Position numbers: made by a program
Part shown: positions 36,901 to 39,900 of the stretch, one piece after another
Layout of the letters: every line of letters starts with the position of its first letter
How positions within the stretch are numbered: position 1 is the stretch's first letter
NCBI RefSeq assembly: GCF_058153355.1
Contig: NZ_CM177019.1
Length of the DNA: 64,000 nt
Direction: 5' to 3' (one strand)

Positions 36901-39900
36901 CCAGGTTAAGAAGAACCACAGTGTAGAAGCCACCGCAAATTGCCCAAGATAGACGCCGATCAGTTTACGATGGAACACCAGTTTCCAGTCTTTGGCTGTT
37001 AGCGGCTGACGCGACTCTTTTTTCACTGGCGCATCGCCATCCACCAGACCGCCGCCGTCACGAATGTAATCCAGTTCAGCTTTGCTAATGCCTTTGGTCA
37101 GGCGCGGCGGCTGATAAACCTTAAACCAAATCAGCGACCAGATAATGCCGATACCGCCGGTGACAATGAACACCCAGTGCCAGCTCAACATTTCCTGAAT
37201 CCAGATCAGCAGCGGAGTCAGAAACGCCAGACCGACAAACTGACCAGACGTATAAAAACCCACGGCAGAAGCGCGTTCATGTTCCGGGAACCAGCTGGTC
37301 ACCATCCGGTTATTGGTCGGGAACGCGGGCGCTTCGAAAATACCGGTTATCGCACGCAGACCAATTAATGACATTAAGCCCGTGGCAAAGCCCTGGAATA
37401 ACGTCGCCACTGACCAGCCAAATATCGCAATAAAATAAGTCACGCGAGAACCTACGCGATCTAAAAACCAACCGCCGGGGATCTGACATAAGGTATAAAG
37501 CCAGGCGAAGGCCGAAAATACATAGCCCATTTGCGCTTTGGTAATGCCGAACTCTTCCTGAATATGGGCGGAAGCCACGGCCAGGTTAGCGCGGTCAACA
37601 TAACAAATGACCACCGTAATAAAGATCATCACCAGCGTCAGATAACGCCGACGCCCCGGTTTTGCTGCATTAACGGGAATATCCATAGCGAGCTTTCTCC
37701 AGATTTTGGGCATAGCGAAGCCGCTCACCATGCCCTGTAATGTACAGAGGGTTATATTTTTGTATTGCTGTTTTAGTGCCCGATGAGGGGCTTACGTGGC
37801 AGGAATTACCACTCTGCTACGCTGTTATCTTCATGACGCCAGAGCGGATTACGCCAGTCCGGGGCATTTTTACTGAACTCAATGACTTTGGCTTCGTCGA
37901 TTTCTACGCCTAAGCCCGGTTTCGTTAATGGTTTAAAGAAGCCGCCGACCATGCTGTAATGCCAGTCAGTTAAGCAACTGACTGGCTCTTTTTCGGGGCT
38001 GTGGGGTATTTCCAGGGCCTCTCCTTTACCACTCTCGGGAAGGCCCTTTCCCTTCTTGTCGGTAATTTCACAAGTTGTCCCATACTTGCAAGATCGCGCA
38101 TCAGCTCCGGTATACGTCCCGGTGAAGCGCCCTGCAATGTCATCAGCATTCTCATCACCATTCCGCATGATTCTGAGAAACTCAGTTGATTCGGCCAGTA
38201 ACCTTTCAGATGTTCCGCCATTTTAATCATCTGATATCTCACCAGATTATAAGCCAGTAAGACACCCCACAGCTCTTGCTCCACAAGCTCCGGCTTTTTA
38301 CTTCTCAGCGTCAGCCTGCTCAGTTGCATCGTCTGTTTTATCTCCCTGTATCCCAGTTCGATTTCCCAGCGATGACTGTACAGATCCGCCATTTCTCCTC
38401 CGGGGAAGCGCATGGCGTCCGTCATCGACGTCAGCAGATGGCAGACTTTTCCTTTGCGCGTCACGGTCAGCAGGCGGGCTGTCACTTCATTTCCCAGTCC
38501 CGGCCACTTTTTTCGTGCCTGCGGGCTGGTTTTCAGCTTCACCAGATGATCGCCTTTACCCAGTTTTCTGATCTCTTCATATTGCGCTCCCTTTCTGAGA
38601 GGTATCATCCAGTGGCGGTGTTCTCCCGCCAGGCTCCAGGCATTTAACAGTCCCAGTGAGTAATAACCTTTATCCATTAACGTCAGAGTGTTATCGCCGG
38701 TTTGTTCTATAAGTTGCTCAGCAAGCTCATTTTCGCTGTTCTTCATCGTGCCGAAGGCTGCAGCCGTCAGCAGATGGCTGGTCAGTTCCATCTGGCAGAC
38801 CATTTTGACCTGCGGGTAGAGCGCCGGGTTCCCGGCATGTGTCTGGCGGGGGAAGGCTGCATCGTTCTCTGGTGTATCCGGTGTGCGCCAGAACACACCA
38901 TCGATGGCCAGCAGGGTCAGGCCGCACCAGTGCGGATGCGGCGTGGCGTTATGCCAGAGCTGCGCTGTTTTCGTGAACACGCGGCGGACAGCCTCACTTC
39001 CCAGGCGCTGGCGGGCCTGAATAACGGCACTGGGGGCAACGAAGGGGCGATTGCCCGGCAGCATGATGTCCAGGCGATTCACAATCTGGTGAAGAGGTTC
39101 TTTACGCTCAAGCGCCATGCCAACAATACACCAGACCATCATTTCGAGGGGAAGACGGCGCTTGCGTAGCGTTACAGTACCTGATTCGGCAAGGCAACGA
39201 GAGATGAGTTCGGGGTCGAGGTAATCCCCCAGAGAAGTCAGTGGGTTACGCAGAGAATCGTAACGGGATACCAGATCAAGAGCCTGTCCAATGTGCATAA
39301 AAAAATCCGGAAACAAGTGAGCGTTTCCGGATTCTTACACAGCCACTGGATCGGTCAACTGATCCTTAACTGATCGGCATTAGGCCAAATCGGTCCCGTT
39401 TTTTTTCGCCTTTATTTCGGAGAAGTGTCCAGAGGGGCAAGGGGATTCGGGGGAGTATAATTTCGCCATTCAGAAAGAATGGAAAGAATAATGCAAAACA
39501 GAAAATGGATTTTGACCTCGCTGATAATGACTTTTTTCGGCATCCCCATACTGGCGCAATTACCAACTGGCGCACGGTTGGCGGTAACGATCAGGAGATC
39601 CAGACCTGGCAACGCCCGGAAGACTCTGGCAGCCAGACAGTGATGCAATCGCAGGTCATGAAAAATGTCCGCATGATCTCGCCGCAGGAAACCGAAGTGG
39701 CAAGCATGATGGAGGGAATGATTAAAGTTGTTGCCGAATACCGTAATACAAACAACTCAATAGGCTACACCTTCCGCTATTACGCAACACAAATGAACGC
39801 CGATAAAAATATAAAACTGCTAGCTATTAACGGTATTGCACCGACTGCGGAAAATATTCGTAACGGCAAATATCCGTATATCGTCGATGCCTTTATGGTA

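Follow-up and report, generated by a model that had tools for sequence, protein, structure and literature searches.

The stretch of DNA analysed here, hereafter the window, comprises 64,000 nucleotides (64 kb) of contig NZ_CM177019.1 and holds a single copy of the insertion sequence IS4, which separates two runs of genes (Table 1). To the left of IS4 the genes run adeD ... uhp ... ilvBN ... cbrA-dgoT, as in other E. coli, and to the right they run PstS-like/yzgL, glpD, glpEGR, rtcRBA, malT, malPQ ... feoB. A preliminary description of this DNA had assigned the K-12 order to both sides, from ade to dgoT on the left and from glpD to feoB on the right, and the gene order that we obtained agrees with it. 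The left part of the window also contains a ~7-kb accessory islet between adeD and uhpT (823–7792), absent from strain 2017-02-2CC, which encodes a LacI-type regulator, a cellobiose-type PTS IIC, a GH1 phospho-beta-glucosidase, a LamB-like porin and a 150-aa ORF. Two further ORFs, of 495 aa (12951–14438, minus strand) and 383 aa (14690–15841, minus strand), lie between uhpA and ilvN in a stretch of low GC content (0.46–0.47) and gave no match in Pfam, NCBIfam or PADLOC; the corresponding interval in strain 2017-02-2CC also contains hypothetical genes.

Table 1. Features around the IS4 copy (positions in the window).
Feature	Position	Strand	Basis
dgoT, D-galactonate:H+ symporter, intact, 445 aa	36394–37731	-	exact protein match and annotated counterparts
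dgoD remnant, last 151 nt (49 codons and stop)	37806–37956	-	alignment to intact dgoD 3' end
Putative left half of dgoD IS4 target, expected duplication copy (GC)CGACCATGCTG	37944–37956	+	site model
IS4, probably a recombinant of two copies	37957–39382	-	near-identity to nine copies
Terminal inverted repeat, transposase-distal end, TAATGCCAGTCAGTTAAG	37957–37974	+	repeat pair
Perfect 11-bp hairpin, then TCTTTTTC, just inside the IS4 end	37961–37995	+	RNA fold
IS4 transposase gene, 442 aa, intact	37970–39298	-	NF033592 match, open frame
Terminal inverted repeat, transposase-proximal end, CTTAACTGATCGGCATTA	39365–39382	+	repeat pair
Right half of glgP-terminator target, GGCCAAATCGGTC, then CCG and T-run	39383–39406	+	identity to empty site
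PstS-family gene (yzgL locus), inactivated	39493–40017	+	alignment to intact gene of R32_14_1F
Second PstS-like gene (330 aa) and 200-aa hypothetical	40043–41637	+	between pseudogene and glpD
glpD	41850–43355	-	synteny and annotation of matching R32_14_1F region

The IS4 copy is complete, with a length of 1426 bp. The 18-nt inverted repeats at its ends are complementary at 16 of 18 positions, and its transposase ORF is uninterrupted and scored 304.5 bits against the NCBIfam model NF033592, 'IS4 family transposase' (cut-off: 115 bits), so that the complete element with 18-bp imperfect repeats and an intact transposase that had been described earlier is indeed present. When compared to nine other E. 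coli copies taken from complete genomes, it displayed 1–9 differences over 1426 bp (99.4–99.9% identity). The features of the IS4 subgroup, whose members make direct repeats of 10–13 bp at insertion, have been listed (PMC2266710); the copy in the window has the size of ~1.4 kb, the imperfect terminal repeats starting with -AATR- and the single DDE transposase ORF, but not the direct target duplication of 10–13 bp. It thus resembles IS4 of Escherichia coli (IS4 family, IS4 subgroup) in its length, its 18-bp imperfect repeats and its one DDE transposase of 442 aa, and differs from it in that no direct repeat is present and its two flanks come from two separate targets.

On the left side of IS4, only the 3' end of dgoD is present. 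Alignment to nine related contigs and to strain 2017-02-2CC revealed that dgoD homology ends exactly at position 37956, and the 49 codons and stop that remain correspond to the last ~50 codons that the preliminary description saw meeting the element. In the nine related contigs the intact gene continues after ...CCGACCATGCTG with AAGTCTTCTTT...; in these contigs and in 2017-02-2CC it reads ...GCCGCCGACCATGCTG followed directly by AAGTCTTCTTTATTTTTC..., and it is between these two that the homology of the window stops and IS4 starts. A hybrid ORF made of the IS4 end and the dgoD remnant (37806–38168, minus strand) returned no record when looked up as an exact protein. The protein encoded by the neighboring dgoT has exact matches in many E. 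coli contigs, where the gene follows an intact dgoRKAD; in the window only the last 49 codons of dgoD remain beside dgoT, in line with the earlier claim that dgoD is destroyed at this locus and dgoT cut off from its operon.

On the right side, the sequence directly adjoining IS4 is GGCCAAATCGGTCCCGTTTTTTTT. The first bases of this flank (Table 1) are identical to an unoccupied site that follows glgP in strain R32_14_1F, which is the closest match to the right flank (98.7%); this empty site reads AGAACGGGGCCAAATCGGTCCCGTTTTTTTT, and the window keeps only its right half, beside IS4. Further to the right, the earlier reading of a yzgL-like pseudogene followed by glpD stands as far as the pseudogene and glpD are concerned, but the pseudogene is a PstS-family gene with a deletion, and two ORFs intervene before glpD. 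Compared with its intact 502-aa counterpart in R32_14_1F, this PstS-family gene, which gave a partial TIGR02136 match, lacks 979 bp. The deletion shifts the reading frame and lies between 10-bp direct repeats (TGGCGCAATT; joint at 39552–39561), and the truncated product was found in two Logan contigs only.

The site downstream of glgP is occupied by IS4 in other genomes as well. In 18 of 5426 complete E. coli genomes we found IS4 at the same position and in the same orientation, namely in the terminator hairpin ~45 nt downstream of glgP. Two of these genomes were read directly, and in both of them glgP is located on the other side of the element, with a duplication of GCCAAAGGGTC (11 bp) in one and GGCCAAAGGGTC (12 bp) in the other. 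Since neither the length of the duplication nor the sequence variant of IS4 is the same in these two genomes, the site has been hit independently and is a hot spot as opposed to one ancestral insertion. The right junction of the window reads base for base as the right half of this recurrent insertion at the glgP terminator.

Next, we examined the architecture of IS4 targets. The sites that we read lie downstream of glgP, eno, rpoD, nupC, feaB, ompA, aroA and treF, plus one site on a plasmid, and all share a common form: an A-tract is followed by a GC-rich hairpin, the top of which is the duplication, and then by a T-run. As the T-run was always on the side of the transposase-proximal IS4 end, in all sites read, IS4 insertion appears to be orientation-specific. 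The chromosomal targets read are located just downstream of a gene reading toward the IS. With a position-weight model derived from eight independent targets, each position of an un-rearranged 49-kb reference was scored on both strands; in the correct orientation, the dgoD breakpoint ranked between 36 (assuming a 13-bp duplication) and 167 (11-bp) among 294,732 candidates. By this score the dgoD site is weaker than the canonical terminator sites and far above background, and the left junction is probably half of a second, normal-looking IS4 target inside dgoD. No IS4 was found at the dgoD breakpoint position in any of the 5426 complete E. coli genomes.

The nine other IS4 copies were examined in like manner, and each of them is flanked by a perfect duplication of 11–13 bp. 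In the window, the left flank ends with ...GCCGACCATGCTG and the right flank starts with GGCCAAATCGGTC..., and no match of at least 5 nt exists between the end of the former and the start of the latter. The statement that this IS4 has no target-site duplication and that its flanks are unrelated therefore holds; no direct repeat is there to contradict it. A simple IS4 insertion is ruled out by the missing duplication together with the non-contiguous flanks.

We then compared the positions of the two flanks in K-12, where dgoD occupies 3,871,850–3,872,998 on the minus strand, with the break at ~3,872,000, and the stop codon of glgP is at 3,564,134. Moving from left to right in the window, the K-12 coordinates rise to ~3,872,000 and then fall from ~3,564,1xx. 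The flanks of IS4 are thus ~308 kb apart in K-12 and are joined head-to-head, in agreement with the separation of about 300 kb and the opposite relative orientation noted previously. GC skew was negative to the left of IS4 and positive to its right, with the cumulative minimum at IS4. This sign change fits a recent join of oppositely replicated DNA, and on its own it cannot tell an inversion from a false join; the local cumulative minimum is not a replication origin. Taken together, the opposite orientation, the 308-kb spacing and the sign change of the skew argue for an inversion rather than a deletion. Judging from the orientation of the IS ends, the two parental IS4 copies would also have pointed in opposite directions, which is a requirement for an inversion. 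The arrangement of dgoD remnant, IS4 and yzgL seen in the window was absent from the 5426 complete E. coli genomes.

Based on these observations, the window most likely represents one of the two junctions of a ~308-kb inversion, generated when two IS4 copies in inverse orientation underwent homologous recombination. The sequence of events may be outlined as follows. One IS4 entered the intrinsic terminator that directly follows glgP, a step for which the comparison with other genomes provides the evidence; another would have transposed, in the opposite chromosomal orientation, into the weaker target that lies 151 nt before the 3' end of dgoD, as suggested by the site itself; and RecA-type recombination within the 1.4 kb shared by the two copies would then have inverted the interval between them. 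Such an exchange of flanks would leave neither copy with matching duplications, which explains an IS4 without a target duplication. The preliminary description had likewise favored recombination between two IS4 copies over a simple insertion, and both the missing duplication and the identification of the flanks as halves of two IS4 targets speak for that choice; those parts of the earlier reading that could be put to a test were all borne out.

A precedent for this structure came from XH988 (NZ_CP019355.1), one of the 18 genomes with IS4 at the glgP site, which contains two IS4 junctions ~101 kb apart on opposite strands, at about 220.4–221.9 kb and 323.2–324.7 kb. The first junction reads treF ... 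CTTCAGGAGGAG-IS4-GGCCAAAGGGTC ... PstS and the second reads glgP ... GGCCAAAGGGTC-IS4-CTTCAGGAGGAG ... yhjB, so that two 12-bp duplications have been exchanged. From its junctions, XH988 is to be read as a second, independent inversion between two IS4 copies, in a finished genome that has exactly the structure proposed for the window. In both cases the IS4 at the glgP terminator served as an endpoint, and the treF-IS4-PstS junction is analogous to the junction of dgoD remnant, IS4 and PstS pseudogene in the window; the two cases differ in that the partner IS4 of XH988 lies in the spacer between treF and yhjB, ~101 kb away and without disruption of any gene, whereas in the window it lies inside dgoD at a distance of ~308 kb. 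The glgP terminator is thus an IS4 target that is hit repeatedly, and copies residing there can act as endpoints of large inversions. Inversions by recombination between inverted IS copies have been documented in E. coli mutation-accumulation lines (Lee et al., 2016; PMC5009759), where, as in the window, inverted copies of one IS were involved, the segment between them was inverted and each product retained one flank from each original site. In those lines IS4 was single-copy and gave 8 simple insertions and no recombination events (PMC5009759); in the window, by contrast, IS4 is the recombining element, and it is so in a natural lineage.

Assemblies of the same lineage were located by lineage-specific alleles of CbrA and MalT and by the truncated PstS product. 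With the CbrA allele, we retrieved two NCBI drafts (GCA_015332025.1 and GCA_043012465.1), the contigs of which end 6 nt before the IS4 boundary in the dgoD remnant, and Logan assembly SRR31441161, a contig of which runs from the dgoD remnant across the junction for another 25 nt of IS4, with the same sequence as the window. With the MalT allele and the truncated PstS product, one NCBI contig and one Logan contig were found to end at the right IS4 boundary, beside the PstS pseudogene. Read set SRR8656992 also comes from an isolate of this lineage. Both half-junctions are present in independent samples, each separately. Since the contigs break at IS4, the element must be multi-copy in the genomes of this lineage. 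Short-read contigs stop at IS4, and the linkage of the dgoD remnant to yzgL across one IS4 copy rests on the window's own assembly.

If the inversion occurred as proposed, the partner junction elsewhere in the genome would be expected to have the order glgP ... GGCCAAATCGGTC-IS4-(GC)CGACCATGCTG-AAGTCTTC ... dgoD 5' part-dgoA-dgoK-dgoR and, in letters, to read ...GATCGGCATTA(G)(C)CGACCATGCTGAAGTCTTC... and ...AACGGGGCCAAATCGGTCTAATGCCAGTC..., with the partner copy of the 11–13 bp duplication of the dgoD site predicted to reside there. The predicted protein products consist of DgoD residues 1–336 or 1–337 followed by read-through into the IS4 end, for duplications of 11, 12 and 13 bp. No record was found for the truncated DgoD products with these three duplication lengths, a weak negative as the look-up needs the exact DgoD allele and an identical gene call, and in a homology search with truncated DgoD the truncated forms were not separable, being absorbed in one cluster of 8769 members. 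A degenerate pattern that covers intact dgoD as well as the junction of the window and its reciprocal counterpart, and that works locally, had no match among the species-representative genomes, a collection from which the source genome is therefore absent, and the pattern of the reciprocal junction had 0 matches in a metagenome collection.

The two flanks also differ from most sequenced E. coli. Most complete E. coli genomes share only 90–95% identity with the right flank (39383–64000), and 242 records reach 95–99%; the left flank (13000–37956) is 98.5–98.7% identical to about ten genomes and at most 96.7% identical to the next-ranked among the matches listed. The source is therefore an E. coli lineage or haplotype that is divergent and has been sampled sparsely. 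A Shigella origin was considered, given that no complete E. coli was closer than ~98.7%, and found no support, as only one IS occurs in the 64 kb of the window, whose genes are intact apart from those described.

A false join is one way in which the same window could have arisen: a simple insertion of IS4 in dgoD and a separate glgP-IS4-yzgL arrangement would have been connected wrongly at the IS4 repeat during assembly. Two inverted identical repeats yield exactly such an ambiguity in the assembly graph, and the independent assemblies of the lineage, all of them short-read, stop at the IS4 ends and so confirm the junction halves only separately. We nevertheless hold such an artefact to be unlikely, since the window runs for 64 kb through a multi-copy 1.4-kb repeat, suggesting long-read or finished data, and since a real inversion of the same type, at the same IS4 site, exists in the complete genome of XH988. 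Loss or movement of DNA, either of the interval between the IS4 copies or of the 5' side of dgoD, could be invoked because the reciprocal junction was not found; the failed look-ups are, however, weak negatives that required an exact protein match. The flanks are in opposite relative orientation, which a simple deletion between direct IS4 copies does not produce and by which we ruled such a deletion out, and loss of the K-12 interval between the two flanks, which contains many essential genes, would not be viable. A deletion or translocation is, on this evidence, extremely improbable.

The inversion could also have been made in one step, if the IS4 at the glgP site had attacked the dgoD target by intramolecular replicative transposition, thereby duplicating itself and inverting the DNA between. 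The end product would be identical to that of the two-step course, namely inverted IS4 copies each with one old and one new flank, and the final structure cannot separate the two; the dgoD site is, moreover, a plausible IS4 target. Transposases of the IS4 family, those of IS10 and IS50 among them, use a cut-and-paste mechanism with hairpin intermediates and not replicative cointegration, however, and for such a family the one-step route seems very unlikely. The 1.4 kb of homology between two IS4 copies is ample for a RecA-dependent exchange, and the events recorded for IS4 in the mutation-accumulation study were simple insertions, 8 in number (PMC5009759). Insertion of two copies followed by homologous recombination is therefore the course that we favor.

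Inspection of the left end of IS4 revealed a hairpin just inside the element (Table 1), for which RNA folding gave -19.3 kcal/mol (z = -3.3). This hairpin appears terminator-like for transcription entering IS4 from the left and, as it faces the upstream gene, it could replace the terminator that is split by an IS4 insertion. It is conceivable, although we consider it rather doubtful, that IS4 homes in a fixed orientation onto intrinsic terminators, bringing its own replacement hairpin, and that the copy at glgP repeatedly seeds inversions near oriC. If this were true, the replacement hairpin would make IS4 insertions in terminators nearly neutral and long-lived, and the IS4 at the glgP terminator would be a recurrent anchor of 'portable homology' that was acquired independently, giving same-arm inversions in unrelated E. 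coli lineages, over ~308 kb to dgoD in the window and over ~101 kb to treF in XH988. Most likely, the event in the window is an ordinary IS-mediated rearrangement of a well-known kind, which leaves current understanding unchallenged.

As for the consequences of the IS4-mediated inversion, ~308 kb near oriC would now be reversed relative to the direction of replication. At the locus itself dgoD is split, and a DgoD protein without its C-terminal 49 residues should have lost D-galactonate dehydratase activity; the 5' part of the gene is predicted to lie ~308 kb away. The strain is accordingly predicted to show no growth on D-galactonate. The inversion would then be a lineage-specific structural variant that inactivates D-galactonate catabolism and a useful lineage marker, and it calls for caution in reference-based assembly or scaffolding. 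The intact dgoT would be uncoupled from the dgoR promoter, from dgoRKA and from the 5' part of dgoD. It is now located downstream of the IS4 transposase gene and is co-directional with it, and we detected no terminator-like site in the interval between the two genes on that strand, so that read-through from the transposase gene into dgoT is possible.
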